A DNA stretch of 64,000 nucleotides from Anthoceros angustus. Lineage: Eukaryota; Plantae; Anthocerotophyta. Below are positions 4,960 to 54,985 of the stretch, one piece after another. The stretch covers positions 930,001-994,000 of the forward strand of contig VJWM01000044.1 in assembly GCA_010909165.1 (NCBI GenBank), given 5' to 3'. Each line of letters begins with the position of its first letter. Positions within the stretch are counted from its first letter, which is position 1. Below the pieces are notes generated by a model. The model had not been told where the DNA came from, ran no database searches, and saw only the letters and a program-made list of their open reading frames with translations. Both the position numbers and the translations under genes were made by a program.

Positions 4960-5325
4960 CATTTCTCCTAGCAAGGCAAGCAAGCTTGGTTTGACATGGG
5001 CTAGTACATCCGAGCCATGTAGAGTGAAACAAGCTAAAGGAATCTTTGCAACACATAGGTGAATTGCAAGAAGTGCGAGATAGGGAATTGGAATGGAGCA
5101 ATGAGCTTCACGGTTGTAGATATGGATGATCATGAAATCATCTTGGGCTTAGAATGGATGAAGGCCAACAAGGTATGTGTGAGCGTGGACTCACGCACCA
5201 TACAAATCTTAGGAGATGAAGAGCACAAAGTGAGTTGTGCGGTTCTCAAGCGAGGCTTGATGATATCATCTCTAAGAAAGAGCTCAAAGCGTTGTGTAAA
5301 GGATGGAGGAACTCTTTTTACTTGT
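4960..5325 (+). mobile_element. Gypsy A protease C-terminal/linker fragment
   Basis: CEIGNWNGAMSFTVVDMDDHEIILGLEWMKANKV matches the D-x-ILG-x-x-W flap of retropepsins; duplicated at 7600-7890. Confidence 0.75.
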
Positions 5326-5658
5326 CGCTTCCCTTACATGCAGCGAGGGTGTTACTCTATGCCCCAAGGGACACATGTTTTCCATCTTTTAGGCGGAGTT
5401 CTAGCTTGGTGGACCGAGCCGCTCGTCGGGGTGGCCTTCTCGCTAACTTATACGCTGCCTATATATTTCCTTAGACGGTATTATTTTCTTAGGCTTGTAT
5501 ATTACCTTAGACGCTATTAATTTCTTAGGGCACCCATATGAGCACCTGTGCTCTCCAGGTTCTTTCTTTTCGGAGGCTTGGCTGCGGTCGCCTCTGTCAC
5601 CATCGTTTGGACGCTTGAGTGTTGGCTCGATTCCATCTGCTGCCGGGAATCTGTGAAG

Positions 5659-9205: not shown

Positions 9206-10906
9206 GATGGATTGTGTTATTCCAATGTAACGAGCAATGGAGATCAAAAACAAAATTCGGGCATTGATGCAGTTCCCACTGTTTTCATACCTGGCATTCT
9301 CGAAAGAGCAGGCCACTTTTTACCTGACAACACAAAGCCGGATGGTAGAACATAAATCCTCATGAAGTGGGCAGTGCAATTGACCGGAATTTTGCTTCAT
9401 GTCCGCACACGAACCAGCTTACAGATGTGCAGTACCGTCGGAAGGCATCAGATGAACTCCTCCCAGCTCTGCCTCTTCACCATCTAATTTAGCGCATTGC
9501 AATAGGCAGTATGCCTATGCTTATTCTGATGCTGACAGCCCAAATTTCAGTGCCATAATTTCCATGGGAGCCAAGGGACACTCACCTTGATTAAGGAAGC
9601 TTATCTGAGATCCATTAGTACATTGGATCAATGAAGTGGGCAGTGCAATTGACTGAATTTTGCTTCATGTCCGCACACGAACCAGCTTACAGATGTGCAG
9701 TACCGTCGGAAGGCATCAGATGAACTCCTCCCAGCTCTGCCTCTTCACCATCTAATTTAGCGCATTGCAATAGGCAGTATGCCTATGCTTATTCTGATGC
9801 TGACAGCCCAAATTTCAGTGCCATAATTTCCATGGGAGCCAAGGTTCTTTTACCAGTAGCACCCCCGTAACCTTCCTGGCACTGCGCTACCTATGTATTG
9901 GAACTGTACTGGAACTGAGAGATATATCATCGTGCAGTAGCGTTAGCGAAGTGCTTCGCTAAGGTCATAATTCCTACAATTCGTAAGGTCATAATTCCTA
10001 AATCCGTCTAGGACGCTTAGCTTAGGGCCGGTGCACCGAGGGCCCCCGGCCGGTTCATACCCAGGCCCCGTGTCCGCCCGGGGGTCTCACAATAAAACCC
10101 CGGCCAAGGGCTGGGTCATGGCCACACTGGCCATTCGCTCATGCGTGAGTTCACACCGGGCCCCTCCAACCGTGGGTCCAACTCAATCTCGAGATCTAGT
10201 TAATAAATTTAATTTAATATTAAAATTATTTTGTATTTCAAATCGTGTATGCACGTACACACCTGCCATGTCTCCAAGCTGTGACCGGATGCCCTTGGAT
10301 GGATCCATCGTGCCGGTATTCTACACTACACTTGTAGAACATTTGGATGAGCAAATGAGAAGTTTCAAACATGTGCTACGAGATGAGCATATGAGCAGTT
10401 TCAAACATGTGCTACGAGCCCGCGTCATGAGCACTGACAAAAAAATATTTCAAATACTTCCCTATGTCGCTACGAGGAAAAGCCAAAACCTAGTATGAAA
10501 GACTTGAGGGTGGCAGTGAGCTTGACTGGCCTGGATTGTGTTGTGCCTTCCTTGTCAAGTTTCATTAGACCTCGAGGTCTAGTGAAAAAAGTGCAGCAGC
10601 ACGGAGCACTCAACCGGCTCCTGTGTGAAAGGACCCTAGGGGTATGAAGTGTGGGAAAGTGGGTGCCCACATAGACTGGCAGAGTCCCAAATACCCCTCA
10701 AATGGCGATAGCAATAGTAGAAGAAGGAAGAACAACGGCAACAATAATAGCAAGTATAGCTGTGGCGCGACTTTCGCTGACGGTCAGCCGGGCGCGCACA
10801 ATCCCGTGTCGTTGTAGTAAGGAGGTCCGTTCCCAAGAGAATGATAGGCTCTGTTGGCCACGTTTCAAGCGTTTCTCACCTCACGTAGTACCCGTCTTAG
10901 ACTCCG

Positions 10907-11148
10907 TGTTACGAAACAATTAATCATCAGTAACCCTACCGTAGTCTAGTTACATGAACCGTAATTAATAGTATTTAGTAATTACTGACGGGTGTGCCTC
11001 TTGAAGAGACACCCACGGACACTATTTAAGACACACTTTGTACACATTTTAGAGCCAATTCAACACGAAATATCTTTGTGAACATAGCATCTCGATCATG
11101 CTAGACTAGATGTAAGAGATGCACAATCCTCTTGCTAGGATTTTAACA
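10907..11148 (+). mobile_element. 5' LTR of copia-type element C (242 bp) with tRNA-iMet PBS
   Basis: TGTTA...TAACA inverted termini; PBS TGGTATCGAG at 11149; preceded by CTCCG at 10902-10906. Confidence 0.85.
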
Positions 11149-11339
11149 TGGTATCGAGTTACCACCAAACCACGACTGCGGCCCTAGAAAAGGTGAAGTA
11201 CTATACAAAACCAAGAGAAAGCCCCGGAGAGAAACCACAAAGAAAGGAAAAAAGAAAGAAAGAAGACAACAAGGAGAACTCTCAGGAGAAATTAAACCCG
11301 ATGAGAGGGACTATTTCTTCAAGGATCTTTTATGCACTC

Positions 11340-11785
11340 GTGGAGAGACAAATCCGAGGTTTGTTGCAACCACCTATTCAAGTGGGCCTTGGAAAAGTAT
11401 ATCAATGGATTTCATTATGCCATTGCCGGCCAATAATGGACACACTATCATGGCGGTGGTTGATAGATTGACAAGCAAGCACACTTCATCCCTACAAAGC
11501 GGTGAAAGCTTGAAGTTGCTCGATTGTTCAAGAAGCATGTATATATGTTACATGGACTATGCATTGTGAGTGAGAGATCCCAGTTCTGCGAGTTTTGTAG
11601 ACTTATGAAGAGCTTAGTGCAATTATGTATGAGCACGGTACCACCATACGGATCAATCAGAGAGGGTGAAAGATCCAAGAAGAATACTTACGACACTGTA
11701 TACGGATGGACCGGTGAGACTGAGTAATCATCTTGAGGATGCATAATTTTGTTATAATAACATACATAGCTCCACAGGCTACACA
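11340..11785 (+). mobile_element. Second copy of gypsy A integrase core
   Basis: Matches about 70-540 with small indels. Confidence 0.85.
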
Positions 11786-12409
11786 CCTGCCATGTCTCCA
11801 AGCTGTGACCGGATGCCTTGGATGGATCCATCGTGCCGGTATTCTACACTACACTTGTAGAACATTTGGATGAGCAAATGAGAAGTTTCAAACATGTGCT
11901 ACGAGATGAGCATATGAGCAGTTTCAAACATGTGCTACGAGCCCGCGTCATGAGCACTGACAAAAAAATATTTCAAATACTTCCCTATGTCGCTACGCGG
12001 AAAAGCCAAAACCTAGTATGAAAGACTTGAGGGTGGCAGTGAGCTTGACTGGCCTGGATTGTGTTGTGCCTTCCTTGTCAAGTTTCATTAGACCTCGAGG
12101 TCTAGTGAAAAAGTGCAAGACGGCAGACACTCAACCGGCTCTGTGTGAAAGGACCCTAGGGGTATGAAGTGTGGGAAAGTGGGTGCCCACATAGAGTGGC
12201 AGTCCCAAATACCTCAAATGGCGATAGCAATAGTAGAAGAAGGAAGAACAACGGCAACAATAATAGCAAGCTGCGGGCGCGACTTTCGTGACACGGGCGC
12301 GCACAATCCGTGTCGTTGTAGTAAGGAGGTCGTTCCCAAGAGAATGATAGGCTCTGTTGGCCCACGTTTCAAGCGTTTCTCACCTCACGTAGTGCAAGTC
12401 TTAGACTCG

Positions 12410-12651
12410 TGTTACGAAACAATTAATCATCAGTAACCCTACCGTAGTCTAGTTACATGAACCGTAATTAATAGTATTTAGTAATTACTGACGGGTGTGC
12501 CTCTTGAAGAGACACCCACGGACACTATTTAAGACACACTTTGTACACATTTTAGAGCCAATTCAACACGAAATATCTTTGTGAACATAGCATCTCGATC
12601 ATGCTAGACTAGATGTAAGAGATGCACAATCCTCTTGCTAGGATTTTAACA
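12410..12651 (+). mobile_element. Element C LTR copy with PBS
   Basis: Essentially identical to 10907-11148; TGGTATCGAG at 12652. Confidence 0.85.
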
Positions 12652-13489: not shown

Positions 13490-14790
13490 CTCTCAGGAGA
13501 AATTAAGAGCCATGAGAGAGGGACTATTGTTTTCTTCAAGGATCTTTTATCGGCACTCGTGGAGAGAGATTCCTTTGTTCACCTACCACACCAACAACCT
13601 CGACAAGGATTCAAGCGAGTCTTATGACCACAACTTCAAGGCGTGGTGAATCAACATACAACACTTCAACTCACTTTATCGCGCTTCCATGGCTAGCAGC
13701 ACTTCCTCCCCTATGGGAGTACCGTTCTTCACCGACCAAATCAAAGAGAAGGATCGGCCGACCAACACTATCCGGTGTAGCGCGTGCGAATGAAATCCAT
13801 TTGATAGGTCGGCGTCTGGAAGGTCGTGGGCGGCACCTACTAAGCCGACCTCCACTTCCATCCCTCCACCCCAGCTGCGGATATAGGAAATGGGAGTACC
13901 TCAGGATAGTGGCACTCTGATCGGCGGACTCGACTCAAGCACGGTACGTGGAGTTCCTCACGGAGGCTTACGCCATATGGGACCAGCTATCAAACACGTA
14001 CAAGCGTTAACAATGTTCTAACCTTATGCGATTGTGCGGCGAATTCAACGCCCTCAAGATGAAGGTCGAGATCGGTGGCGGCTCACACATCTAAGTTCGG
14101 CGATTCGAGGCGGTGGCCTCTCTCGGCTCAACGATGGGGGCGCCGCCACTCAACTCCTAATGAGTTTCCGGTTCTTGACATTTCGTCACGAGATCGATGG
14201 CGACCAGCAGCTTTGCCTCAACCTCCTCTCGGCGGTGGAGGACATTATTGGTGCTCAGTCGGCGGGGAGCAGGCGCCTGGTTCTGCGAGGGTCCAAGCCC
14301 GATCAGGGCGCTTTCCACCCACTTCAAGCTCGAGGATTCGAAGGGCAAGGCAAACTTCACTAAAGTGACTTGAGATAGGCGGACAACATTGCGATCAAAG
14401 GGCGTAACAGCGGAGAAAAACCGTAAAGATACTTATGGTTTGCCTCAACAAGTTGCATCGGGATGCGGGTGGTATATCACGGACTGATGGAGCCACCACG
14501 TATGCAACGCTCATGCTCTATTCACCAAGCTGGACACTTGCCCTCTGGAGGAAGGAGCGTTACTTGGTGATGAACAGAGCAGAACCAACCTGCCAATCAT
14601 GGGACAAAGCACTTGCGAACTTCCTCTGAAGGATGGTTCGGCACTTACCTTGGAGCCTGTGCTCCTCGTCCCACAAATGGGCAAAAACCTGGTTTCCATG
14701 ACTCAGCTGCTGAAGCAAGGCGATCTTGAGATGCTTGTTTCAAGGGGGTCATGCTACTTTTTCAGGACCACAAGTCGACTTGTGCCTATG
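13490..14790 (+). mobile_element. Element C internal region: copia gag (UBN2-type) and protease region, degenerate
   Basis: Copies read NYPV-VRMKSILIGRRLEG (clearest in the 21870-22620 copy), DGATTY and GQSTCELPLKDGSALTLEPVLLVPQMGKNLVSMTQL, typical copia gag and protease-adjacent motifs. Confidence 0.8.
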
Positions 14791-14795
14791 CGTAC

Positions 14796-15022
14796 CTCAA
14801 GGAGGTGGCCTGCAGTCGTCAGTGGACGGCGGGCTACTTGGAGCCTAGTGCTGTGTTGCTTGGAGCCTAGTGCTGTGTTGCTTGGAGCCTAGTGCTGTGT
14901 TGTGAGGTTGAGAGTGCTGAGAATCGAGCAAGTCTCTTGTGGAGTGAATTGGCGAGGTTCTAGACCACTGGGAAGCCAACACTTGTCGCTTCCTTACTGG
15001 CTGTGCAGCGAGGGGTGTTACT
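14796..15022 (+). mobile_element. 3' part of gypsy A LTR abutting RPS10 upstream region
   Basis: Matches about 2535-2754 including the 3 x 22-bp repeat. Confidence 0.8.
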
Positions 15023-15324: not shown

Positions 15325-15912
15325 ATGGTGAGCACGCCCGCCTAAATTTTGCGTCTTGCTTTTTTTTTTTCTTGTGTTGGATCACTTGTGGACTGACGGT
15401 GGAGCACAATATGTTCTCGGCTGCAGTTGATTCCGAAGAAGAACCGGGTGGAGGTGTACAAGTACCTCTTCAAAGGTTCAGCTTGGTGCACGGTTTTGCG
15501 GAGTAGAGAGAGTCGTGTATGTGTGTGGAACGCGAGTTTGGTGCTGATTTGCTATGGTGACCGTGTGCAGAGGGTGTTCTGTATGCCAAGAAGGACTTTA
15601 ATGCTCCCAAGCATCCGGAGATCGAAGTCCCGAATCTGCAGGTATTTTTGCAGTTCGATGTGCTGAAAGCTGTATCCAGGCCTTTCGCACACCTGCGGCT
15701 GCCCTAATCATTGGTGCTGCAGGTCATCAAGTTGATGCAGAGCTTCAAATCTAAGGAGTACGTGAAGGAGTCTTTTGCGTGGAGGCATTACTACTGGTAC
15801 CTGACGAACGATGGAATTGAGTATCTTCGGACTTACCTGAACTTGCCATCGGAGATCGTCCCTGCTACCTTGAAAAGTCTGCTCGTCCGCCAAGCAGGCC
15901 CATGGGACCTCC
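15325..15912 (+). pseudogene. RPS10: RPS10 5' copy (exons 1-4), truncated in exon 4
   Basis: ATG|GT at 15325 and exons 2-4 as in the intact copy; breaks at GGACCTCCTC into element B-associated sequence. Confidence 0.85.
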
Positions 15913-15914
15913 TC

Positions 15915-18900
15915 GGCGGTCTTGCCGGGCCTCTCCGTCCAGGCTCTACACGCCCCTCGGAGTTCCTCGCTCACCGTTAAGTCCGTCCAGGCAGGGTCCT
16001 TGCTCGGGAGCAAGGGTCTCGCCCACTTCCACACACACCACCGTTGGGGTCCGTCACGGGACCTTGATCGATCTCTCGGGTGTCGGCTGCTTTCGATGGT
16101 GGGACTCACGTTAACAAGAAAACACGCAAAGGGCTGCAAGAAGCAGCATCAACACCAAGAAAGATACTTTAGAAGCTCGGCCCTCTTATATACTCACGCG
16201 AAGGTCACCGTCTTTATTACACCCCTATTACAGTGATGGCATTTCGGTGTGCCTAATCGGCCGCCTACCATCTTACGCCCCTCCCCTATCTCCGTCGTCG
16301 GTGGGCACGAGATATATGCCCTTAGTTCGCCTCGGCGCCCATTACTCGCCCTGGCTATGCAGGCGCCCCAATCGGATGATCCGCGAGACCCTTCCCTTCG
16401 AGACCACAACCAGTTGCTCTGGTCTTTCGGTGGTAACCACCACATCTTCCTCCGTGGCCCTTGAGTGGGTCCCCTCCCAATAAGACCACCATTGATTGTT
16501 CCTGCGTGAGTCGGAGGGTCCCCTCACCTCCCCAGTCGGACCTCGGGAGTCGGTCTCGGCTCAGTCCGAACTTGGGGTTCGGACTTATTTCAGTCCGTCT
16601 TCAGTCGGTCTCATCTCTGGGGTTCGGACCTCGAGGTCCGAACTTATTACCAGGGTCCGGTCCTCAAGTCCGGGACCCCCAACCTCCGGACCACCCTCTT
16701 GTTGGGGTCCGTCCACCGGCTCCTTCCATGGCTCGGATCCGTTGGTTTCCTCCTTCCTCACCTCCTTCGGGACCCTCGTCCCTACCCTCCCTGATTGGTT
16801 GCGGCTGTCTTACCTCTAGGTCGGTTGTGTTGGCGCGTCTCTCTTGGGCTCTTCTCCGCGTCCCAAACAAGGCCACCAAGGCCCCGTCTTCATCCCCATG
16901 CCCTTCTTGGAGCCTTGGGAGGTTCATCCGATTCACGGTGGGCGGAAGCTTCAATGCCTTGAGGAGCTCGGCGTGGTAGTAGGCGAAATCCGAGTCGATT
17001 CATGGATTGCCTCTTCCACATCGCCGGGCACCGTACTCCCGCCATAGGTGCTGGAGGCGGCGTCTTTGTCCGGCTTGCAGTCCGTCTCCCACAGGTTTGT
17101 CGGTGGGCCGGCGAGTCTCGCGAGGCCACAGGAGGCCTCTATTACCTCCTGCAATCGCTGATGCTCTGCTCCGGCTCCGTCGTTTCGCTCATTGCCACTT
17201 ACGCCATGGCACACGTTCCCCTCACTCTCCATAGCTGGACGATTTCTTATGCATCCAGGCTCCTCCTCCGTTCATTCGCACTGGAGCTCCGCCATCTCTC
17301 TTTCCAAGCGGTCAGCGGTTCGATTCCGCGCTTCATCGAGTTCTTCTCCATCTCGGTGGCGTCCTGCTCCTTGTTTTGTTGACCTAATCTCCTTCTGCAT
17401 CTGTAGTTGCTTACTTGGGCTCCCGTGTGATGCCTGTGGCAGGGCCCTCCGCGATTTGGTGATGGCGAGAGGAAGGCTACTGCAGGGCCCTCCTCGAGGA
17501 CCTGGAGGTTTTGACAAGGGTGGAGCTCCAGGGGAATACCGTCCGGAATTCCGCGGGTATGTAATGGATCCGGAGGTCCTCAGCAGTTTTCGTGACTGCT
17601 GCTCCTTGTCACTCGATGACAGCGTTTGTTTTGTTGTGTCAGGGTGGAAGAGGAGGGGCTTTGGCCGAGGCGGCGGTGGTTTTGGTGGTTCAGCACCTTC
17701 GTTGGAGTAGATTCCTTCAGTGTGCAATTTTGATTAGGTGTTGACGAGCCGTAGATGTTTCACGATCTCATTATTGTCCTGGACACGCAAAGTGTTCAGA
17801 TGATCAAGGGCTATCGGATAGAAATTTGGATGGATTGTGTTATTCCAATGTAACGAGCAATGGAGATCAAAAACAAAATTCGGGCATTGATGCAGTTCCC
17901 ACTGTTTTTCATACCTGGCATTCTCGAAAGAGCAGGCCACTTTTTACCTGACAACACAAAGCCGGATGGTAGAACATAAATCCTCATGAAGTGGGCAGTG
18001 CAATTGACCGGAATTTTGCTTCATGTCCGCACACGAACCAGCTTACAGATGTGCAGTACCGTCGGAAGGCATCAGATGAACTCCTCCCAGCTCTGCCTCT
18101 TCACCATCTAATTTAGCGCATTGCAATAGGCAGTATGCCTATGCTTATTCTGATGCTGACAGCCCAAATTTCAGTGCCATAATTTCCATGGGAGCCAAGG
18201 TTCTTTTACCGGTAGCACCCCCCGTAACCTTCCTGGCACTGCGCTACCTATGTATTGGAACTGTACTGGAACTGAGAGATATATCATCGTGCAGTAGCGT
18301 TAGCGAAGTGCTTCGCTAAGGTCATAATTCCTACAATTCGTAAGGTCATAATTCCTAAATCCGTCTAGGACGCTTAGCTTAGGGCCGGTGCACACCGAGG
18401 GCCCCCGGCCAGTTCATACCCAGGCCCCGTCTTCATCCCCATGCCCTTCTTGGAGCCTTGGGAGGTTCATCCGATTCACGGTGGGCGGAAGCTTCAATGC
18501 CTTGAGGAGCTCGGCGTGGTAGTAGGCGAAATCCGAGTCGATTCATGGATTGCCTCTTCCACATCGCCGGGCACCGTACTCCCGCCATAGGTGCTGGAGG
18601 CGGCGTCTTTGTCCGGCTTGCAGTCCGTCTCCCACAGGTTTGTCGGTGGGCCGGCGAGTCTCGCGAGGCCACAGGAGGCCTCTATTACCTCCTGCAATCG
18701 CTGATGCTCTGCTCCGGCTCCGTCGTTTCGCTCATTGCCACTTACGCCATGGCACACGTTCCCCTCAGCTCTCCATAGCTGGACGATTTCTTATGCATCC
18801 AGGCTCCTCCTCCGTTCATTCGCACTGGAGCTCCGCCATCTCTTTCCAGCGGTCAGCGGTTCGATTCCGCGCTTCATCGAGTTCTTCTCCATCTCGGTGG

Positions 18901-19905
18901 CGTCCTGCTCCTTGTTCCATGTACCTCCTCGGTCCGCGGTAAAGGCGCTCTATCTCGCTCGTGATCCGCGATCACGCCCGTGAAACCCGCAGCTCGATTG
19001 TCTCTTGGGCTGCGGCTCAAGGTTTCCTGATCTTCCATCTCCGCTGCTCTTCCACTTTGCAAGCGAGTCAGGAGATCCTCCATCTCCTTATTCTGGCCTC
19101 CTTCTCTCTACCCGGCTGACCTTTGCTCGCCTCCTCTTGTTCCGCCTTGAGGCTAGTGGCGGTCCTGCCGTCTCCCTCCAGGTCGATCCCTCAGTAGTGA
19201 TCACGGTCGGTTTTAGCACTTCCGCCTCGCCCGCCTTCACCCTGGGCCTCCGTGGCTTGGTATTGTTCCGCCCTAGCCGCCTCGACGTCCCTCCGCTTGC
19301 CCTCGGCCTCCTCGCTTCCATGCTACCTCCCCTCCTGCAGAGGTCCTTTGCCGTGCTTGGGCCTCTGTCGTGCTTGATTGTTCACTGGCGGGGACCTTAG
19401 TGCAGTCTGCCAAATGGACCAGACCTCCCGTTCTGCCTCCCGGCGCTTTCCCTCCTCAATTCGCGCGAGGGATTCGCTTTCTTCTTGCCTCACAGGCCGC
19501 CTCCATCTGCTCCGGAGGAGCACCATCGCCTCCTTGTTGCCTCCACCTCACAGGTCTTTCTCGCCATCCCACGAGACCCCAGGCATACCGTCCATGGTAG
19601 CCAAAACCCGCCATGTCTCTTCCACGGGCACCGGTGAGGCACCCAAAATCCGTCGTGATCTTGGGGCATCTCCCGATCCGCCAAGGACCGCCAGCCTGCC
19701 AGTGCAGGCGAGTCCGGGTGGGCTCTTGGACCTAATCAGGACCCTTAGGTCACAGTCTTTAGTCACGGCCTCACCTTCCTTGGCCCTCTTGGCGCGCCCT
19801 CTTCTTTCTCGGGGCTCGAGGGGGTGAGGAGTTGGAGCTAAGCGTTTCCTCTCCGGTAACCTTCAACGACTCCCAGGAGGTTGGTACTCCCCATCAAGTC
19901 TCTCG
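15915..19905 (-). mobile_element. GC-rich segment associated with element B (low-complexity minus-strand ORF plus LTR-like part), interrupted by RPS10 3' half at 17370-18425
   Basis: Repeated at 24393-27440; minus-strand TATA-like TATATAAGAGGGC near 16180; continuous with the protease/MTase segment at its right end. Confidence 0.5.
17370..17710 (+). pseudogene. RPS10: RPS10 3' copy (intron 4, exons 5-6)
   Basis: [24 protein letters not shown] and [13 protein letters not shown] plus a 3' flank identical to that after 6637. Confidence 0.85.
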
Positions 19906-19914
19906 GCCCACTGA

Positions 19915-20590
19915 CACAATCCTCTTGCTAGGATTTTAACATGGTATCGAGTTACCACCAAACCACGACTGCGGCCCTAGAAAGGTGAAGCCACGTACCT
20001 TACAAAACCAAGAGAAGAAAGCCCCAGCGGGGAGAGAAACCACAAAGAAAGGAAAAAAAAAAAAGAAAAGAAAAGAAGACACAACAAGGGAGAACTCTCA
20101 CAGGAGAAATTAAGAGCCAGTAAGAGAGGGACTATTGTTTTCTTCAAGGATCTTTTGTCGGCACTCGTGGAGGAGAGATTCCTTTGTTCACCTACCACAC
20201 CAACAACCTACGACAAGGATTCAAGCGAGTCTTATGACCACAACTTCAAGGCGTGGTGAATCAACATACAACACTTCAACTTTTCGCGTTCCTACCGCTT
20301 CCCAGCGCCTCCCCTATGGGAGTAGTACCGTTCTTCACCGACCAAATCAAAGAGAAGGATCGATTCGGCCAACACTATCCGGTGTACGTGCGAATGAAAT
20401 CCATTTGATAGGTCGGCGTCTGGAAGGTCGTGGCGGCACCTACCCCAAGCCGACCTCACTTCCATCCTCCACCCCAGCTGCGGATATAGGAAATGGGAGT
20501 ACCTCAGCGGGATAGGCCGGGCACTCGTCGGACTCGACTCAAGCACGGGTGCCCGGCGTGGAGTTCCTCACGGAGGCTTACGCCATATGG
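19915..20590 (+). mobile_element. Element C LTR end, PBS, leader and gag copy
   Basis: GGATTTTAACA TGGTATCGAG with PBS at 19942; gag matches about 13530-13980. Confidence 0.8.
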
Positions 20591-20690
20591 GTCGTTGTAG
20601 TAAGGAGGTCCGTTCCCAAGAGAATGATAGGCTCTGTTGGCCCACGTTTCAAGCGTTTCTCACCTCACGTGGTACCCGTCTTAGACTCCG

Positions 20691-20919
20691 TGTTACGAAA
20701 CAATTAATCTGTCCGTAACCCTACCGTCGTCTAGTTACCGTAGACCGTAATTAATAGTATTTAGTAATTACGAACGGGTGTGCCTCTTCGGAAGAGACAC
20801 CCACAGACACTATTTAAGACACACTTTGTACACATTTTAGAGAGCCAATTCAACACGAAATATCTTTGTGAACATAGCATCTCGATCATGCTAGACTAGA
20901 TGTAAGAGATGCACAATCC
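20691..20919 (+). mobile_element. Element C LTR copy, 3'-truncated
   Basis: CTCCG|TGTTACGAAAC start; switches to element B at ACAATCCT. Confidence 0.8.
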
Positions 20920-20920
20920 T

Positions 20921-21866
20921 TGCTTTTGGATCCGGGTCACAATGCACGTATCTTCGCACTTTGATGCCACACTTTATGCCGCTTCAAGCGGTCTTGATGC
21001 CTCCAAAGAGTTCCACGAGCACTATGCCGTCTTCCAGGTCGCCATGTGATGACACAGGTGTTTAGGTCACAAGCAGGCTCAACCCTAGGCAGAACTTACA
21101 GTTCTCGGCTCATAGGACCTTGGTCCTCTTGCACCATCCTCCAGCTTTTGCACGGCTCATTCTGCGATCACCAGCTCCGTCCGGTGACTTGAAGAACCTC
21201 CTCAGGGTGGTTGCAACCCTAGCTTGTTTCCTCCTCCTCGTCAAAATCCTCCATCGTCATTGCGGTTGTTAGACACAAGAGGTTCAAGCACGTATGGCGT
21301 GTCCTTCACTCTGCCAAAACCTTTGGGTAGGTAGGTGAGGTTCTCATGATCCTTGCCATGCATGCGAGAGGGATGCGGGCAATCCGTTCATCGGTTTTGC
21401 TCCAGCTTCTCGGCTGATCGATAGTATCTCCGTCCACAAATCCACCATGACTCGAGGTTTGTACAAAGCGTCCGCTCCAAGACATCAAAGTGTCGCATCG
21501 GTGACCAGCGGTGTACCTCGACAAAGGTGAAGTCTGCTGTTCTTGGTTTGAATGAAACCTTCAGCTTGTACCTTGTCACCCCCAACACATGCTCGTGGTC
21601 CCAGTGCGATGCGGATCTTCCACTTGGTTTCCTTCAACCTTTCTTGGTGGAGACCCAACGCTTCCTTCACTCTTCTTCCAACGATCACCGGGCTGCTCGG
21701 TGTCAATCAACACCCTCCTTGGTGCGAATCCATTGATTTCAATGTGCCTCTCCCGATTGTTGACCAAAGCCACTCCCACTCGTGCTTCGCTTCCACCGAG
21801 ATGCTTGGCTCGGTCAATGACATCATTGCCACTGTTGTGGCACATTGGACACTTGCCCGTCTTCAA
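20921..21866 (-). mobile_element. Element B pol fragment, copy 1: aspartic protease followed by C5-cytosine methyltransferase N-terminal motifs
   Basis: Minus strand reads RRVLIDT-QPVIVG, LGADALYK, then EDGIVLVELFGGIKT-(fs)-KCGIKVRRYVHCDPDPKA. Confidence 0.7.
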
Positions 21867-21869
21867 GGA

Positions 21870-22620
21870 TCTTTGTCGGCACTCGTGGAGGAGAGATTCC
21901 TTTGTTCACCTACCACACCAACAACCTCGACAAGGATTCAAGCGAGTCTTATGACCACAACTTCAAGGCGTGGTGAATCAACATACAACACTTCAACTTT
22001 TCGCGTTCCTACCGCTTCCCAGCGCCTCCCTATGGGAGTAGTACCGTTCTTCACCGACCAAATCAAAGAGAAGGATCGATTCGGCCAACACTATCCGGTG
22101 TACGTGCGAATGAAATCCATTTGATAGGTCGGCGTCTGGAAGGTCGTGGCGGCACCTACCCCAAGCCGACCTCACTTCCATCCTCCACCCCAGCTGCGGA
22201 TATAGGAAATGGGAGTACCTCAGCGGGATAGGCCGGGCACTCGTCGGACTCGACTCAAGCACGGGTGCCCGGCGTGGAGTTCCTCACGGAGGCTTACGCC
22301 ATATGGGACCAGCTATCAAACACGTACAGCGTTAACAATGTTCTAACCTTATGCGATTGTGCGGCGAATTCAACGCCCTCAAGATGAAGAGTCGGATCTG
22401 GTGGCGGCTCACACATCTAAGTTCGGCGATTGCGAGGCGGTGGCCTCTCTCGGCTCAACGATGGCCCGGTAGCGCCACTCAACTCTAATGAGTTTCCGGT
22501 TCTTGACATTTCGTCCGGACTGATCTTGATGGCGACCAGCGCCACCGCTCAACCTCCTCTCGGCGGTGGAGGACATTATTGGTGCTCATCGGCGGGGAGC
22601 AGGCCGCTGGTCTGCGGGAG
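21870..22620 (+). mobile_element. Element C gag copy
   Basis: Matches about 13545-14310; FFTDQIKEKDRFGQHYPVYVRMKSI. Confidence 0.8.
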
Positions 22621-22699
22621 GGTCCAAGCCCGATCAGGCAGGCGCTTTCCTCCTCGACCCGGCGAGGGGTTCATTCTTCGCCTCCTGGGCCAGCCTGCG

Positions 22700-23985
22700 T
22701 CTCACGGAGGAGCACCATGCGCCTCATTGTTGCCTCCCTGGAGTCTTTTCTTGCCATCCAGAGACCCCAGGGCCATCGTCAGTAGCCCATAGCCAGCTGT
22801 ATGTGTCTCTTCCACGGCCGGCCCTGGTGAGGCACCCAAAAGTCCGTCGTCGATGCGGGCATCTAGTGTCCAGCAGGACCGCCATCACCAAGCAGGCGGT
22901 CACTGAGTCTTGGACCTAATCAGGACCCTTAGGTCCACAGTCTTTGAGTCACGGAGCCTCACCTTGGCCCTCTTGGCCGCGCCTCTTCTCCTCGGGGGCT
23001 CGAGGGGGTGAGGAGTTGGAGCTAAGCGTTTCTCCCTAGGTAACCCTTCACCGACTCGTGAGGTTAGGGGTACTCTCATCAAGTCTCTTACGCTTCCCCA
23101 ACTGCTTTTGGATCCGGGTCACATGCACGATATCTTACTTTGATGCCATTCTGCTTGTTTACACTTGGCCGTCGATGTTTCCAAAGAGTCTACAGCACTG
23201 TGCCGCCTTCAGGTCGTATTGAGTGATGACACAAGGTGTTTAGGTCACAAAGCAAAGGCTCAACCTAGGCAAGAACTTTCAGCCCGAGGCTCACAGGATG
23301 ATTATCTTGCAATCCTCCACAGCCTTTTTGCACGGCATTTCATTCGTGCGATCCACATTTCAGTTGACTTGAAGAACCTCCTCAGGGTGGTTGCAACCCT
23401 AGCTTGTCTTCCTCATCATCAAAATCCCTTGTAGTTAGTTGCGGTTGTTAGACACACGCCAAGAGGTTCAAAGCATTATTTCTTGACCATGATGCCAAAA
23501 AACGGCGCGGGTAGACGTCCTGTGTGCAATGAGGTTCTCATGATTTTGCCATGCAACTGGAAGGGATGGCAAGCGATCAGTTCTGTTTTGCTCCACTTCT
23601 CGACCTGATCCGATAGTAGACATCACCAAATCCATGACTTGTGTTTGTACAAAGCGTCTGCTCGGAAGACATCAAAAGTATCTGCGTCGATTGCCAAAGC
23701 AGTGTACTGACAAAGGCGGTGAACCTGTACATTGCGTTTGAATGAACCTTGACCAACCTTGTCACCCCAACACATCTCCGTGGTCCGGTATGATGCGGAT
23801 CTTCCACTTGGTTTCCTTCCATTTTCTTGGTGGAGACCCAACGCTTCCTTCTTCTTCTTCAACGATCTGCCGTATGTGCTCGGTGTCAAGGTAACCTTTA
23901 TGCTGATGCGAATCCATTGATTTCAATGTGCCTCTCTTGATTGTTGACCAAAGCCGCTCCCCACTGCAGGTTGCTTCCACGGAGA
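22700..23985 (-). mobile_element. Element B pol fragment, copy 2 (noisier)
   Basis: Homologous to 20921-21800 and 28280-29290; MTase motif I degraded to LFGNIDG. Confidence 0.65.
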
Positions 23986-24145
23986 TGCTTGTTTCAAGGG
24001 GTCATGCTACTTTCAGGACCACAAGTCGACTTGTGATTCGTCTTCTCAGGCCGCTGGCCGTTCATTACCCTTGAGGGGGCGCGCACCATAGAGGCGTCGC
24101 GCTCCATGGGAGATAGCCTCCACTCATTGAGTTCGTCGGCTAGAG

Positions 24146-24392: not shown

Positions 24393-27300
24393 CACACACA
24401 TTCATCGTTTTACGACTAACTACCCGTAGCATTCAGGGCAGGCGTGGCGACGTTTGAGACCGTTCGCGTCCGTGTCATTCAAGTTTGTCACTCGTCCCTC
24501 TAGTCCGTCCTCTCATCATTCACACTTCACTCACTATCCTTAGGGAAAATTGCGGGTGGGCTGGCAGTCCGGACCTCCTCGCCGCTCTGCCGGGCCTCTC
24601 GTCCAAGGCTCTACACGCCTCCCGGGGTTCCTCAGCTCACACGTTCGATCGTCCAGGCAGGGTCCTTGCTCGGGACGTGAGCAAGGGTCCTCTGCACACA
24701 CCACCACACGTTAGGGTCCGTCACGGGACCTTGATCGATCTCTCGGTCGGCCCTTTCGATGAATTAGGACTCACGTTAACAAGAAGGCACGCAAAGGGCT
24801 GCAAGAACGCAGCATCAACACCAGAGAAAGATACTTTACTTAGAGGCGACCGGCCCTCTTATACTAGAGGTCACGTCTTTATTACACCCCTATTACGGTG
24901 ATGGCCGGCTCGATTGTGCTAATCGGGCCTACCATCTTACGCCCCTCCCCTATCTCCGGCAGTGGGCACTGAGATATATGCCCTTGGTTCTAGCCTCGGC
25001 GCCGATGACCCACTCCTTGCAGTGCAGGCGCCCCAATCGGATGATCCAGCGGGACCCCTTCCTTCCCGAGACCACCAGTTGGGCTCTCGTGGCGGTCTTA
25101 CGGTAGTGGTAACCACCACATCTTCCTCCGTGGCCCAGCAGTGGGTCCCCTCCCAATAAGGGCACTGATTGTTCCCCTTAGTGAGTCGGAGGGTCCCCTC
25201 ACCTTCCCGAGTCTGGGACCTCGAGTCCCGGTCTCGGCTCAGTCCGAACTTGGGGTTCGGACTTATTTCAGTCCGGTCTTCCGTCTCATCTCTGGGGTTC
25301 GGACCTCGAGGTCGAATACAGTCCGTCCTGGTGGACCCCCAACCTCCGGACCACCTCATTGGGAATTAGTCCTCGCCAATGGCTCCTTCCATGGCTCGGA
25401 TCAGGTTGGTTCCTCCTTCCTCACCTCCTTCGGGACCTCGTCCCTACCCTCGATTGGTTGCGGGTACATCTTACCTCTGGAGTCGGTTGTGTTGGCTGGC
25501 GTCGCACCTCTTGGGCTCTTCTCCAGCTCTTTGTCGTCCCCAAACAAGGCCACCAAGGCCCCGTCGTCCCCATGCCCTTCGCCGTGGAGCCCCTTGGGAG
25601 GTTCATCCGATTGCGGTGGGCGCAGGAAGCTTCCATGCCTTGAGGAGCTCGGCGTGGTAGTGGGCGAAATCAGGAGTCGATTCATTTGGATTGCCTCTTC
25701 TGCGCCGGAGCACCGGTACTCCCTTATGGGTGCTCGGAGAGGCGGCGTCTTTGTCAGGCTTGCGATCAGTCGCCACCAGTTTGTCGTCAGGAGTCTCATG
25801 CGAGCGCGAGCGAACCTCTATTACCTCCCGCACTGCGATGCTCGCCTGCTCCGGCTCCGTCGTTTCCGCTCAGCCCTTACTGCCATGGCACAATTCCTCA
25901 CTCCCTTAAGCTGGACCGGTAGCTTCTTATGCGCATCAGGGGCTCACTCCTCCGTTCATTGGCTGGAGCTCCGATCTCTCTTTCAAAGCGGTCCAGTTCC
26001 TTCGATTCAGCGCTTCATCCGGAGTTCTTCTCCATCTCGCGACGTCTGCTCCTTGTTGCCTTATCGCCTCCTCGGTGTGCCAAAGCTAAAGGCGCTCTAT
26101 CGCGCTCTGATCCGCGATCACGCCCGTGAAACCGGCTTGATTCGATTATCTCTTGACGGCTCAAGGTTTTATGCGGTCTTCCATCTCTGGCTGCTCTTCC
26201 GCACTTTTGGCCAGTCAAGATCCTCCATCTCCTTGTAGCGGCCTCCTTCTCCTCTACACGGTGACCCCTAGCACACTCGCCTCTCGAGCTTCCGGGCTGC
26301 ATTGCGGTCCCGCTTCCCTCCAGATTCACGATCCTCCATTGTGATCCACGGTCAGTTTTTAGCCCCAGCCATGCGTATGTCTGAGCCTCCGTGGCTTATA
26401 AGTTCCCAGCCTGGCCGCCTCGGCCCGTCCACTGCCCAATCGCTTGCCCTGGCCTCCTCCGCTGCCTTCTGCCCGCTACCCTCCTCCTCCGCAGGTCCTC
26501 CAATAAACGGTGGGGCGCAGGAAGCTCCATGCCTTGAGGAGCTCAGGCGTGGTAGTGCGAATCAGGAGTCGATTCATTGGATTGCCTCACATCGCCAGCT
26601 TACCCTTCCCGCCATGGGTGCTCGGAGAGGAAGAAGCGTCTTTGTCCGGCTTGCGATAGTCTGCCAGTTTATCAGGGTGAGTCTCGCGAGGCCAGCTGAC
26701 CTCTATTACCTCCACGCAATGGCCGATGCTACGCCTCCAGCTCCGTCGTTCTCAGCAAACTTACTGCCATGGCACACTTCCTCGCCTCCCAATGGACCAA
26801 GTAGCTTCTTATCGCATCCGGGCTCGCCTCCGTTCATTGCTGGAGCTCCGCCATCTCTCTTTCCAAGCAGTCCTTCGATTAAGCGCTTCATCAGTTCTTC
26901 TCAGTCTACGTCTCGCCTGTTCCATCGCCTTACCTCCTCGATGGCAAAGCTAAAGACGCTTATCTGCGCTCGTCGCGGTCACGCCCGTGAAACCCGCCCG
27001 CTTCACGATTACTCTTTGAGCTGCAGCCTCAAGGTTTCTGCGGTCTTTTCTCTACTTGCATCTTCCAGCCACTTTTGGCCTCAGTCGAGATCCTGCATCT
27101 GTGCGGCCTCCTTCTCCTCTACCCAGTGACCCCTAGCACAGCCGCCTCCTCTTGTTCCCTTAGTAAGGCGGTCCACTGCCGTTCCCCTCCACCGTTGCGA
27201 TCTCGGTGATCCCGGTCGGTTTTAGCCGCGCTTCCGCCTCGCCCGCCTTCACCCTGGGCCTCGTGGCTTGGTGTTCGCCTAGCCGCCTCCGCCACGTCCG

Positions 27301-27440
27301 CGCCGCATCCGCTTGCCCTCCGGCCTCCTCGCTTGCCTTACCCCTCCTCCTGCGGAGGTCCTTTGCCCGTGCTTGGGCCTCTCCGTCTTGATTGTTCACA
27401 CACTGAGGGACCTTGAGCAAAGTCTGCCAAATGGACCGGA
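24393..27440 (-). mobile_element. Second and third copies of the element B-associated GC-rich segment
   Basis: Homologous to 15915-17370 and 18425-19440 with many 1-3 nt indels; about 26495-27260 repeats about 25610-26330. Confidence 0.55.
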
Positions 27441-27444
27441 CCTC

Positions 27445-28275
27445 CTCCTCCCGGGGAGGGTGAATTTGGGGTTGTGGTTGGCATTCTCTGTTGCCCGCCC
27501 GTTCGTTTCGGTGAAGGCCTACTCCTCGTCGTATGCAGCGGTGGCCTGCACCTCCACACAGTTACCGATTTTGCCCTTCCTTCCTCAAGTGCTGCTGGTT
27601 TTCCTTCCGTCTGCGACTCGCGATTCCACTGTTCACAGGTTTGCAGAACATATGACCACATGCCATTCCATGGCCCTTGGCTGTAAGCACAAACACTGGC
27701 GAGTGCGATTGCAATTTTGAGCTTACCTTCTCGGCCTTCTCTTTGTTTTGTTTTCCGCCCACTTCCACGCCTCCGATTCGTGCTTGTCACGTTCCTTGGC
27801 TGCCGACCCTCGGCCGTGTAACTCTTCCTTCCCCATGCCTTGCGGGCATTCCCCTTCCTTTCCTCTTAGGCCTCCTCCATCCTCCATAGGTTGCGTCACC
27901 TTTTGGAGCCCATGCGGTCCATGCTCGGCATCGGCTCGGCGGTATGTGTCGGGTACAAAGTTCGGCAGGCGCGTTCACATCTCCATCCTCTTCCACCCCA
28001 CCTCGTGCTCTTCCTCATCGTCACCATGTCGTGGCCGTCGTCATCCATTGGAGGCTGGATCCCGTGGCGGATGTCTCATTTACATCTCGCCTCCATTCCC
28101 ACCGGAGCAACGTTTTTGGCACCATTACACATGCCGTCACCGGTCCCCCCTGCGCCTCCATTGTCCATCCCCCATCTGCGCCACTACTACCTTGATGTCC
28201 GTGCATCGCCATTCCACGGATGTGTACGGCCCCATGTACAACTCACTTACGGCGCCCCTCTCCCTACCATGTTCT
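27445..28275. repeat. Direct duplicate of the CACTA-like element interior
   Basis: Aligns by eye to about 33520-34345; a second piece at 29292-29480 matches about 34525-34700. Confidence 0.85.
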
Positions 28276-28279
28276 TCGT

Positions 28280-29290
28280 TGCCCCGTTTTCCCGAGGCAC
28301 CCAAATCCGTCGTCGGTCGGGCATCTCGATCCGCCAAGGACCATACCAGCGATGCGGGCGAGTCGGGGTGGGCTCTTTGGACCTAATCGGGACCCTTGGG
28401 GTCACAAGTCTTTGAGTCCCGGGCCTCACCTTCCTTAGCCCTCTTGGCGCGCCCCTCTTTCTCCACAGGGCTCGGAGGGTGAGGAGTTACAGGCTAGCGT
28501 TCCCTCTCCCGTGACCCTTCAACGGCTCCCACAGCCGAGGTTAAGTACTCCCCCATCAAGTCTCTTACAGCCACAGCCTTGCTTTTGGATCCGGGTCACA
28601 ATGCACGTATCTTCTTTGATGCCACACTTTTATGCTTCAAGCGTGCGATGCCTCCAAAGAGTTCCACGAGCACTATGCCGTCTTCCAGGGTCGCCATGTG
28701 ATGACACAGGTGTTTAGGTCTAAGCAGGCTCAACCCTAGGCAAGAACTTCTGATTCTCGGCTCATAGGACCTTGGTCCTCTTGCACCATCCTCCACAGCT
28801 TGCGGCTCATTCTTTGCGATCCCACTCGTCAGGTGACTTGAAGAACCTCCTCAGGGTGGTTGCAACCCTAGCTTGTCTTCCTCATCATCAAAATCCCTTG
28901 TAGTTAGTTGCGGTTGTTAGACACACGCCAAGAGGTTCAAAGCATTATTTCTTGACCATGATGCCAAAAAACGGCGCGGGTAGACGTCCTGTGTGCAATG
29001 AGGTTCTCATGATTTTGCCATGCAACTGGAAGGGATGGCAAGCGATCAGTTCTGTTTTGCTCCACTTCTCGACCTGATCCGATAGTAGACATCACCAAAA
29101 TCCATGACTTGTGTTTGTACAAAGCGTCTGCTCGGAAGACATCAAAAGTATCTGCGTCGATTGCCAAAGCAGTGTACTGACAAAGGCGGTGAACCTGTAC
29201 ATTGCGTTTGAATGAACCTTGACCAACCTTGTCACCCCAACACATCTCCGTGGTCCGGTATGATGCGGATCTTCCACTTGGTTTTCCTTC
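28280..29290 (-). mobile_element. Element B pol fragment, copy 3: protease C-terminus, MTase fragment and downstream ORF
   Basis: ORF 28596-28796 contains ATLEDGIVLVELFGGIA; a shifted frame gives RYVHCDPDPKAR. Confidence 0.7.
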
Positions 29291-29479: not shown

Positions 29480-30820
29480 CTCGGACTTTGATGTTGCTCC
29501 TATAGTTGCTCCTGCCATGATAACTCAAACGACTTTGGCATCTTGGCATAGGTTCGGGAAGAGGATCGGCTTATTCTTATGTCTTCCGTTGGTGTCAAGA
29601 CATCCTCTTCTTCCTCTCGAGCTATCTTCTCGTAGTATCGAGGTTTCTTCCTGCCCGATCCTGGCCATGTGTAGAGGCTTGCTTGCCATCTTCTTCGTCC
29701 TCGATGATGACTGCCTCTTGATCTTGGCCCGCGCTGACCAACTGCGGCGTAGCCGCGTGGCCCATCGCGATGCTTCGCTTTTGTCCACCAGGGACTTGAT
29801 TGCCTCCTGCGCTTTGCTCTTCACGTTGATTTTGTGGATGAGGGTTAGCCGGATGCATTGGTAGGATTCTTCATGCCGATGTACATGCTTCTTGACATCC
29901 GGCCCAGCTGGCGTGGCTCTGCCCAGCTCACTCCCAATCATCTCATGAGGGGAATAGTCATCTTGACTTCCTCACGCAGGGGCTCGTCGCCCAGGGGTGT
30001 GGGTGTGTCTCGTGAGCTCCTCCACTCGACCTCCGTGGAGTAAAATATGACCCACCACTTGTCTTGTGTCCTTCACAGCAATGAGAGAAAGTGTCGGCCA
30101 GACTATGTGGCATCTTACCATCTCGACACTGCCTTGAGGGTGTAGGTTGCTCTTCGTAGCCATGCATGCGCGCATCTGTGATCGGTATGCATGATGCTAT
30201 TGCTCTGGGGATCAGTCCGCCTGATCTTGGGTACAACCCCAGTCGATTCTTGATAAACCCATCTTGATCTCACCGTGCTTGAAGCGCCATTCGGCTGGGA
30301 TCTTACCGTATTCAGATCTTCCACTTCCATTGGAAAATCAACATCTCGATGGATGTGTCGCCGATGGCGCGCAAATCGTTGCCGGTTCCTCTACAACTCG
30401 GCCACTCATTGGTCGCCGTGGAGCTGCTCAATGACCTCAGGCCTTTTCGCGATAACGATGCTTCGTCACGTACTTGATGGGCGACGCTTCGTGTCCAGGC
30501 CTTCAATTCCATCTCCGCACCGTACTTCTCGATGAAGTCCTCCGGTGGCAAGGTGCCGCTCGTCCTGTGAACAACTCCATTCGATCCTTGTCTCCTCCCA
30601 TCTTGGCGACTCCAAGAGACAAGTCCTCCTGTCGCTTGAGTTGTCCGGCACTAACGTGTCTTGTGTGTTGCCACTCACAGATCCTTCAAAGATTGTTGAT
30701 TGTGTCTGGGTTCCTCCGTCCTTCGGTGGTACCAAAATCGAGGTGTTCGCACTTCTCCTCTTGGTCGGGACTTGAATTGCTGATGGACTTGAGTTGGCTA
30801 GTGGGATCGGTGTATGGGCA
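29480..30820 (-). mobile_element. Element B gag-like region, degenerate
   Basis: Broken ORFs (e.g. PEDFIEKYGAEMELKAWTRSVAHQVRDEA) lying between the LTR and the protease; assigned mainly by position. Confidence 0.45.
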
Positions 30821-32712: not shown

Positions 32713-34799
32713 GCGTCACCTTGGCGGCAGCGAAAGGACATCTTCCCCTACTAGAAATGGCCCCCTATGTTACACTTTTTGTTAAGATTTGAACCCCCCC
32801 ATGTTGCAATTATGTTGAAATCTTGGGGTCTTGTTACACTTATTTGGCCCTTGTATGATCGGGCTTGGTAACCAACCTCCATCTTGTTACAATCGCGTTC
32901 TGATCTTGTTGCAATTTTGTTGTAGTGAGAGGCGGTATTTGGCCCTTTCAAAATTTCAACATATTTGCAACAACCAAAGTGTTACACCCTCTTATGTTCT
33001 GATTTTGCGAGGCTTGGTACGAACCTCCTTCCCATGTGGGTTTGCCATTATTGCTTTCATTCCTTTGTTTTCCCTGCCTTTATTGTTGTCGTGTACGGAC
33101 TATAAGTATATAATATGCCTTGGCTTCCAGTGCGTATTGCCCGATGTCATTACTCAAATTTATATCGATGCCTTTTCAAAATTACGTACAAGTGGTATCG
33201 TATTTGTCCACTCCGTTTTGCACGGTGCGGCACGCAAATTTCTGTGGCGTTCGTTTCCACCTTTATTGCCTTTTCACGTCACTCGTATTGCCCTTGTGGG
33301 CGTCCCGTATAGGGTACTTGTTTTGGAAACCCTTACGGTCCACAAGAACAACAAGACGTAGTTTCACCACCCTCGGATAACATGCGGTTCTTTGCATCCA
33401 CATCCAAAATTGGCCCTCCTCAGCTGGATGAATCTACGGCATCCGCATCCGCATCCGCGGTGTCCGTGCTCACTCGTCGAGGAATGAACCGCAATCTCCA
33501 TCCGCGACCTACCGTGCTCCCTCCTCGCGGGAGGGGTGAATTGGGGTTGTGGTTGGCATTCTGCCCGTTCTCGTTTCGGTGAAGGCCTACTCCTCGTCGT
33601 ATGCGTGTGAAGCACCTCCCACACGATTTACCGATTTTGCCCTTCCTTCCTCAAGCGCTGGTTTTTCCTTCCGTCTTTGCACTCGCGATTCCACTGTTTC
33701 ACAAGTTTGCAGAACATATGACCACATGCCATTCCCATGGCCCTTGGCACAAACGTGGCGAGTGCGGTTGCAATTTGCGAGCTTACCTTCCTTCTCTTTG
33801 TTTTGTTTCCGCCCACTTCCGCCTCGATTGCGTGCTTGTCACGTTCCCAGGCTCTGCCTCGGCCGTGTAACTCTTCCTTCCCCATCGCCTTGCGGGCATT
33901 CCCTTCCTTTCCTCTTAGGCCTCCTCCATCCTCCATAGGTTGCGTCACCTTTTGGAGCCCATGCGGTCCATGCTCTCGGCATCGGCTCGGCGGTATGTGT
34001 CGGGTACAAAGTTCGGCAGGCGGCGTTCACATCTCCATCCTCTTCCGCCACCTCCACATCTCCTCTCATCACCATGTCGTGACGCTCGATCTCCATTGGA
34101 GGCTGCTGGATCCCGTGATGATGTCTCATTTACATCTCGCGCCTCCATTCCCTGCCGCGAACGTTTTTGGCACCATTGCGCACATGTCGTCACCCCACGG
34201 TCCCCTCGCCGCCTCCATTGTCCATCCCGCCCATCTGCGCCACTACCGGCCTTGATGTCCCCGCATCACGCCATTCCACGGATGTGGCCCCATGTACAAC
34301 TCACTTACGGTGGCGCCCCTCTCCCTACCATGTTCTTCGTTGCCCCGTTTTGAGGCACCCACCACCATGCCCCCACGATCATGACCATCGCTATGTTACG
34401 CCACAACCACGGCCGTTCGTGGTGTCGTGGGACCACCACCTCATCGCCTCGCCATAGTCGGCGATGTCGATCATGCTGCCCACAGGCACGCTGTCATGAG
34501 TTTGCCCCACCGTAAGCGCTTCTCTCGTCGCACCCTGTTTTGTTACTGTCATTTGGTGCTCCATGGCCTACCACCGCCTTGATGTCCTGTCCTCCCATGG
34601 TTGATCGTTCACCTCGTGACGTCCCTCTCCATGTCGGGTTCCACGCCTTCTTGTCCCCGCCATTCGTCCTTCCTTCCCGCACATTTGTGCGCGTTTTTCT
34701 CCACCACATGCTTGTGGCTCCCCTGCTGGCTCGAATGGCTTCGCCTCACATCTAGCGCCCCTTTGTCCGGAAGGATTGACCCATTCCACTATCCTCCTC

Positions 34800-54448: not shown

Positions 54449-54985
54449 CCTTTCCCCTTCAAGCCAACGACCGTCCTCCAGTCCTCACCACCTAAAATCC
54501 TACTTGAAACGCAACATTCTGCAACCAGGCGCATCAAACGAGCCACCCTGCTCCATCCATCTACAGATCAAATTGCTCTTGTGCGCATTCAAGCCATCGG
54601 ATTCGGAGGCAACGCCAGACACAAGACCAAAAAGCGCGGGAAAAGCGTTCTCTTTGCTCTAACAGGCCATCTTGCGACTCCTTCACGCGCCTCTCCTCAC
54701 TCGCACAAACATTCCTCTTGCATTCCGCAGGCATCGCCTCCAGCGGAGCGTAGAAGCCTGCGAGGGATCAATCGACACAACATTCTCAGCAATGTAGGCC
54801 ATCGCAGACGCAGTGAGACTCTGGAACAACGTTCAAAACTTCACACACATTTCGCGCAGAAACGTCTCTTTTGAAATACGTGTTTAAAAATGCGGCACCG
54901 GTCCTCGATAGGTACGCATATCTAGGTGCCTAAAGCATTTTTCTAATAGAATTTCACCAGAAGGTCCATTGAACCAAGTGGGTAC

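Follow-up and report, generated by a model that had tools for sequence, protein, structure and literature searches.

Can a retrotransposon of a land plant carry a cytosine methyltransferase of its own, and is such an enzyme still encoded at the locus considered here? The window, i.e., the whole stretch of 64,000 nucleotides that was analysed, contains on its minus strand a degraded reading frame in which the protease of a retrotransposon is followed by a sequence resembling the SAM-binding motifs of DNMT3 enzymes. The analysis described below indicates that the window very probably holds three copies of a segment that comprises the protease, the linker and the first ~70 codons of the DNMT3-type domain of a Ty3/gypsy polyprotein, and that these copies are likely inactive relics of a single deletion that was later duplicated. 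The coordinates of the features are given in Table 1.

The protease and the start of the methyltransferase

The copy in which the motifs were noticed, hereafter copy A, runs on the minus strand from 21776 to 20912, from the protease to motifs I-II of the methyltransferase, and is colinear over this length with a gag-protease-DNMT-RT polyprotein of the liverwort Calypogeia. The methyltransferase motif lies on the minus strand after the protease, where a sequence-only reading had put it: it occupies 21043-20912 in a single frame with one TGA, and the protease words LIDT (21710-21699) and LGAD (21481-21470) are found upstream, the latter at ~440 bases. Compared with its relatives, the motif is one codon shorter and contains two compensating frameshifts.

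Local alignment of 21773-20912 with the Calypogeia protein P0028 yielded a score of 217, with 95 of 282 residues identical (34%) and 11 frameshifts, and alignment with P0027 a score of 218 (91/280 identical); the few residues aligned past 20912 belong to an insert discussed below. When the match to P0028 was split by domain, the protease scored 142 and the DNMT start 102. Neither score was reached in any of 60 shuffles, and 112 background tiles, aligned in the same frameshift-aware chance test with P0028, peaked at 45 for the protease and 43 for the DNMT start. The proposal that a DNMT-like piece follows the protease in an LTR-retrotransposon pol is thus borne out. The DNMT-start score is partly circular, since the first relatives were selected with the motif itself, and the match of the family profile to the DNMT start (E 3e-9) is partly circular as well. 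The protease match does not depend on the motif search, since the protease was never used as a query for these relatives. A profile built from the proteases of three relatives matched copy A with E values of 7.6e-7 (21703-21428) and 0.019 (21779-21696), and BLASTP of the copy A protease against P0041, a second Calypogeia protein, gave an E value of 2e-9, as compared with 0.26 for the other gypsy protease of the window. The linker on its own scored 28 in frameshift-aware alignment with P0028, which is chance level. The distance from the protease Asp to motif I is 230 codons in copy A and 224-225 residues in four relatives. At the level of sequence, these data support the assignment of the copy A piece as the start of a DNMT3-type C5 methyltransferase in a Ty3/gypsy pol, straight after the protease. 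The label gypsy derives from the relatives, since the RT and integrase of the lineage are absent from bases 1-46,000 of the window.

The motif piece on its own is too short and too damaged for general libraries. A match to PF00145, which the sequence-only reading had proposed as a check, was not obtained, as the window piece did not reach the gathering score in Pfam; the same family was found in two of three locus pieces and in six of seven proteins of the relatives described below. Among 28 proteins, taken from the motif piece and from 15.5-38.5 kb in all three frames of the minus strand, Pfam recognized no retroelement or DNMT family. A 44-residue motif piece matched nothing among PDB sequences at E<=10, including the entries of animal DNMT3 and plant DRM, and a search of 5.8 billion proteins yielded one candidate, with none scored. 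A 257-aa read-through found no match among 1.84 billion representatives. Phage sequences gave two rows at chance level (E 7), and a viral contig, L001, one of 26 candidates, was rejected as a chance match.

Table 1. Positions of the retrotransposon features in the window.
Feature	Position	Strand	Basis
Copy A, frameshifted retropepsin-type protease of the gypsy lineage that carries DNMT3	21428..21776	-	Profile and BLASTP matches
Copy A, linker between protease and methyltransferase	21054..21427	-	In order within the alignment that spans both domains
Copy A, start of a DNMT3-type C5 methyltransferase with its SAM-binding motifs I-II	20912..21053	-	Score 102 with P0028
Copy A, final ~17 codons of the methyltransferase remnant, beyond the insert	19862..19914	-	DNA common to copies B and C
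Insert of 1 kb from another LTR element (LTR end, primer-site-like word, leader, LTR interior), 9-base direct repeat at its bounds	19915..20911	+	Internal matches
Copy B, protease, linker and noisy methyltransferase remnant	23050..23991	-	76% DNA identity to copy A, 944 columns
Copy C, protease (3' part only), linker and methyltransferase remnant, the latter uninterrupted (motifs 28705-28577)	28520..29290	-	79% DNA identity to copy A
Downstream module, joined to the methyltransferase remnant at one point common to the three copies	15905..19861; also 22641-23049, 24571-28519	-	DNA identity

Relatives of the element

With a 48-residue motif query, at least 14 metagenome loci were confirmed among the 595 pattern matches listed. 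Judged by their translations, these loci comprise two sequence types and at least ~8 distinct insertions, and they lie in AT-rich DNA. One of them, L004, encodes, in this order, DNMT, RT, RNase H, integrase and a PHD finger, and is preceded by a protease-like stretch without a Pfam call. When the DNMT domain of L004 was compared with PDB sequences, DNMT3A/B/C ranked first (best E 3.8e-7), followed by 4onj (0.002), a plant DNA methyltransferase that we take to be DRM, and by bacterial enzymes (>=0.1); the motif IV cysteine of L004 aligns with that of DNMT3A. A structure model of a further relative, P0025, was most similar to DNMT3B (Z 12.2, rmsd 2.5, 143 aligned) and DNMT3A (Z 12.0), with the next family at Z 9.8, a result that weighs weakly as the model is of low confidence (mean pLDDT 40). 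The domain of the relatives is Dnmt3-like and not rearranged, with DNMT3 ranking first both by sequence and by fold. The PHD finger of L004 (L004:11601-12200, E 1.6e-7), located after the integrase, adds a histone-reading domain to this DNMT-carrying, plant-like element.

The DNMT domain of L004, used as a query, retrieved six proteins from 923 candidates, including P0028 of Calypogeia fissa (CAM6082409.1) and P0030 of Chromochloris. The cluster of P0028 contains P0041 (CAM6101866.1), one open frame of 1549 aa encoding gag, protease, a whole DNMT and the start of RT, with GWECQ at motif IV and IEN at motif VI. The relatives have Glu-Cys instead of Pro-Cys at motif IV, and the order of their elements is gag, protease, DNMT, RT, RNase H, integrase. 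Between P0041 and four non-algal relatives, the DNMT is 64-78% identical and the protease 75-77%, as compared with 40-53% for the spacers. The DNMT is conserved to about the same degree as the protease, and its higher identity than that of the spacers suggests selection on the enzyme. Long terminal repeats were not seen in five related loci, the flanks of which may be too short.

The Chromochloris zofingiensis protein P0030 contains a Glu-Cys-type DNMT3 module that is 32-44% identical to that of P0041. In this chlorophyte the position of the module differs: it is found after RNase H and before a G-patch and, as judged by eye, the start of an integrase. This arrangement is not named in the accessible parts of the retrotransposon-DNMT literature examined.

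A broader reading, which we put forward tentatively, is that the genome from which the window derives could possess a high-copy, still-coding Gypsy-Dnmt3 family of its own. The lineage could then be old and widespread in green plants, in view of the open frame in the liverwort, the two sub-lineages in plant-like metagenome DNA and the Glu-Cys-type module at another place in Chromochloris. If so, land-plant retrotransposons would carry, and swap, a de novo methyltransferase of their own.

Three copies with a common end

Three copies had been claimed in the sequence-only reading. Copies A and C were recovered both as protein and as DNA, whereas copy B was recovered as DNA but not as protein: its DNMT piece scored 29 with P0028, a score reached by 36 of 60 shuffles and hence at chance level. 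The protease of copy B scored 45 (reached by one of 60 shuffles), and its motif region (23240-23103) aligns as DNA, with a mean column identity of 78% over copies A, B and C. In copy C, VELFGG starts at 28667 and CDPDP at 28600, in different frames, and the DNMT start scored 75 with P0028, which was not reached in 60 shuffles.

Two features had escaped the sequence-only reading, i.e., that copy A is cut at 20912 by the 1-kb insert, and that in none of the three copies does the methyltransferase extend to motif IV. As judged by eye, the copies end at one common point, ~70 codons into the domain; in P0041, motif IV is located 86 residues past motif I. The end of copy A near 19862 was likewise placed by eye from the reading frames, and the piece between the insert and this end has, on its own, no significant match as protein. 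The catalytic motifs IV, VI, VIII and X are missing from copies A, B and C; the relatives possess them. Ten domain queries were run against bases 1-46,000 of the window, and only the protease of copy A and the DNMT starts of copies A and C rose above background; gag, motifs IV-X, RT, RNase H, integrase and PHD all remained within it (score <=61). The Gypsy order of RT, RNase H and integrase that is present in L004 is therefore not seen in these bases. Two other stretches had drawn attention. A candidate for the C-terminal part of the DNMT at 17342-17823 on the plus strand (score 83-92) was rejected as a gappy alignment to a repeat that is also found at 4599 and 6751, and a likeness to gag noticed by eye at 30312-30650 was not supported in the domain-query scoring.

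Since everything from motif IV onward is missing from bases 1-46,000 and the domain is broken off, no copy here can encode a working enzyme, and a functional methyltransferase in the window is not supported. The position of the DNMT inside Pol beside gypsy enzymes is seen in the colinear match of copy A and, as a full order, in the relatives; the window copies are fragments derived from a Gypsy-Dnmt3 family, not complete members of it. As none of the three reaches the catalytic motif, they are probably inactive relics that go back to a single deletion. This deletion likely fused the start of the DNMT to the downstream module, after which the fused unit would have been copied at least twice, and copy A would later have received the 1-kb insert.

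In an intact element, gag, protease, methyltransferase and the downstream enzymes would be made as one polyprotein, from which the protease likely frees the methyltransferase, to be carried in the particle. By analogy with published elements (PMC5890265), the freed enzyme would likely methylate cytosines, either of the newly made cDNA or of the site of insertion, and fresh copies methylated in this way would arrive marked like host DNA. Such self-methylation by the intact element we infer only from this analogy.

The insert and the downstream module

The insert in copy A matches the window at 10808-11130, 12312-12633, 11122-11345 and 21860-22307, and its 9-mer stands at 11122, 12625, 19915 and 20912. 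It represents a permuted piece of another LTR element, and the 9-base word is native to LTR and target alike, which suggests microhomology-driven joining or chimeric assembly rather than the action of an integrase. A contig of sequencing run X1 joins 20912 to 19903 and so bridges the insert site, with 21 letters on its shorter side.

The downstream module of copy A is interrupted between ~17375 and 18418. It ends in a repeat with a TATA-like word, and this repeat is common to the ends of units A and C. The module, which is also found at 33520-34361 on the minus strand, has a basic, charged reading frame and an internal duplication of ~945 bases, and there are long open frames on its plus strand (25045-26238 and 26272-27129). 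It contains no Pfam family of note and has no match in the 14 related loci listed, and a 104-aa frame of the module has no match in the Atlas.

Alternative explanations

The truncated unit, composed of protease, DNMT start, downstream module and terminal repeat, might be a mobile, non-autonomous element that was copied by a helper, with the DNMT piece as a passenger. We consider this unlikely, albeit worth serious thought; it is compatible with the explanation of the copies as relics, from which it differs only in how the copies arose. It would account for the identical junction in the three copies, for the common repeat with its TATA-like word at the end of the module after A and C, and for the X1 contig that spans the insert site into shared sequence. 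However, no paired LTRs, primer site or target duplication could be identified for the unit in copies A, B and C, and all three copies are found within 14 kb, amid a patchwork of segments that are nearly identical, which fits local duplication. Furthermore, X1, a run that accounts for 32% of the sampled words and may stem from the source sample or from a relative, covers the protease and the DNMT start (20.8-22 kb) at a depth of 581-896 but most bins of the module at 0-12, where depth is not to be equated with copy number. Run X2 has a small share, and the classification of X3 as RNA is only a guess.

It is improbable that the breaks are mostly assembly errors and that the three loci are, in reality, young or intact copies with a whole methyltransferase. 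Between copies A and C, 61 indel events, 24 transitions and 26 transversions were counted, versus 7, 194 and 44, respectively, between the plant-like controls L002 and L004 with the same aligner, and a PPR gene in the window changes frame several times at 47600-48120. This pattern looks like unpolished long-read sequence, so that the age of the copies cannot be read from the frameshifts. The indel excess varies with the aligner, since a three-way count on MAFFT alignments shows fewer indels than substitutions. Indels and substitutions are about equally frequent between the copies, so that the differences may reflect decay or sequencing error alike. A contig of X3 (458 bases, depth 5.6) has the length that an unbroken frame across motif I would have, followed by 105 bases unlike the window. 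Together with the depth of X1, it provides weak hints of fuller copies elsewhere. The common break of the three copies could itself be an assembly product, but base-calling error does not explain why one downstream module is joined at one place in all three, and nothing from motif IV onward is present in bases 1-46,000. The deletion that was later duplicated remains the preferred explanation.

True DNMT3 genes exist in bryophytes, according to the accessible text of PMC6453930, and the motif piece might thus derive from one of the host's own DNMT3 or DRM genes and have ended up beside a gypsy protease unrelated to it. This is very improbable, as the protease belongs to the lineage that carries a DNMT in the relatives, at equal spacing, and such a lineage-specific protease at the spacing of the family is not what a stand-alone host gene would show. 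Moreover, the fragment found no animal DNMT3 or plant DRM in the PDB search described above, yet scored 102 with the retrotransposon form, and its motif I comes first, unlike the rearranged order of DRM. Finally, an ordinary protease-RT linker that resembles a SAM-binding motif by chance, with which the silence of the general libraries would agree, can be dismissed, as two separate segments match one liverwort polyprotein with order and spacing kept, far above the 112 tiles and 60 shuffles.

The surrounding window

The sequence-only reading had taken the window for land-plant DNA on account of PPR and UMAMIT genes. This origin is upheld by a tree of NDC80 and by a PPR protein in which Pfam recognizes the E motif, whereas the two UMAMIT-like pieces found no Pfam match at E<=0.01. 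In the NDC80 tree (24 rows), the window groups with the land plants (99/97) but belongs to none of the starred clades of mosses, Riccia and ferns plus seed plants. Its fork with mosses and Riccia has a support of 84/89, short of the starred level; the branch is long, and the tree includes no named hornwort. The host is likely a bryophyte, with a liverwort of another group as the best guess and a hornwort or a lycophyte as less favoured candidates.

NDC80 is part of a compact cluster at 49681-62000, which further contains a parvulin-type isomerase, a 940-aa PPR protein with E motif, endonuclease V and a membrane-protein gene that is UMAMIT-like by eye only. The PPR gene with frame changes is of the P class and is located at 46792-48564 on the plus strand; it changes frame several times in ~500 bases while its repeats are clearly kept, and it is a pseudogene or contains uncorrected errors. 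Bases 1-36000 are a patchwork of segments of 100-1500 bases from several elements, many of them 98-100% identical and reshuffled. This patchwork adjoins the indel-rich copies and may be an assembly artefact. Other pieces of retroelements on the plus strand are a gypsy protease (5059-5520), a copia-type Pol beta-barrel (11139-11569) and, as judged by eye, an integrase-like stretch (14488-14892). Many short inverted and direct repeats are found at 38715-40184, and a tandem array at 50663-51762.

Relation to known systems and significance

The paper on DNMT-carrying retrotransposons to which the sequence-only reading referred does exist (de Mendoza et al., 2018; PMC5890265). According to its accessible text, KnitGypsy-Dnmt3 of Klebsormidium nitens, a streptophyte, has an intronless, non-rearranged Dnmt3-like domain in the Pol of an LTR Gypsy element, as found here. 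In contrast to KnitGypsy-Dnmt3, the host of the window is a land plant, the copies are devoid of the catalytic half and everything beyond, and, by comparison with the published description, the DIRS-like repeat layout was not found. The KnitGypsy-Dnmt3 domain displayed no activity in yeast, a result that its authors called inconclusive (PMC5890265). In the same text, the enzymes of SymbioDIRS-Dnmt3 of Symbiodinium are the only ones shown to methylate CG de novo, in yeast. Those elements share a Dnmt3-type domain in the Pol of a retrotransposon but are DIRS elements with a tyrosine recombinase, and they are regarded there as an independent capture.

A close likeness is seen with P0028 and P0041 of C. 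fissa, in which the protease type, the spacing and the context of motif I are as in the window; P0041 is an open frame with a whole DNMT, whereas the window copies retain a broken third of it. The host DNMT3 and DRM enzymes of land plants, as described in the accessible text of PMC6453930, have a similar C5 methyltransferase fold, but their genes lack a fusion to a protease. The EpiLTRs, as far as their preprint is accessible (bioRxiv 10.64898/2026.05.21.726589), also contain a DNMT within an LTR element, but this DNMT is sister to DNMT4 and, in Cymbomonas, has an adenine methyltransferase as its neighbour at the 3' end of pol. The accessible text of that preprint and of PMC12344493 mentions the Gypsy-Dnmt3 type only as 'streptophytes', and no report of a land-plant Gypsy-Dnmt3 was found in the open-access literature. 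The element type is already known from Klebsormidium, as accessible in PMC5890265, and the window adds a land-plant member as a relic.

A transposon that carries the silencing enzyme of its host is in print, as far as the open-access literature shows, only from algae and protists. The window contributes to this picture a host lineage and a third sequence type, in the form of a catalytically empty remnant, and the useful material is the open-frame relative in the liverwort. With an occurrence in bryophytes, which offer tractable genetics and known DNMT3, CMT and DRM pathways, what the element gains from its enzyme becomes testable.
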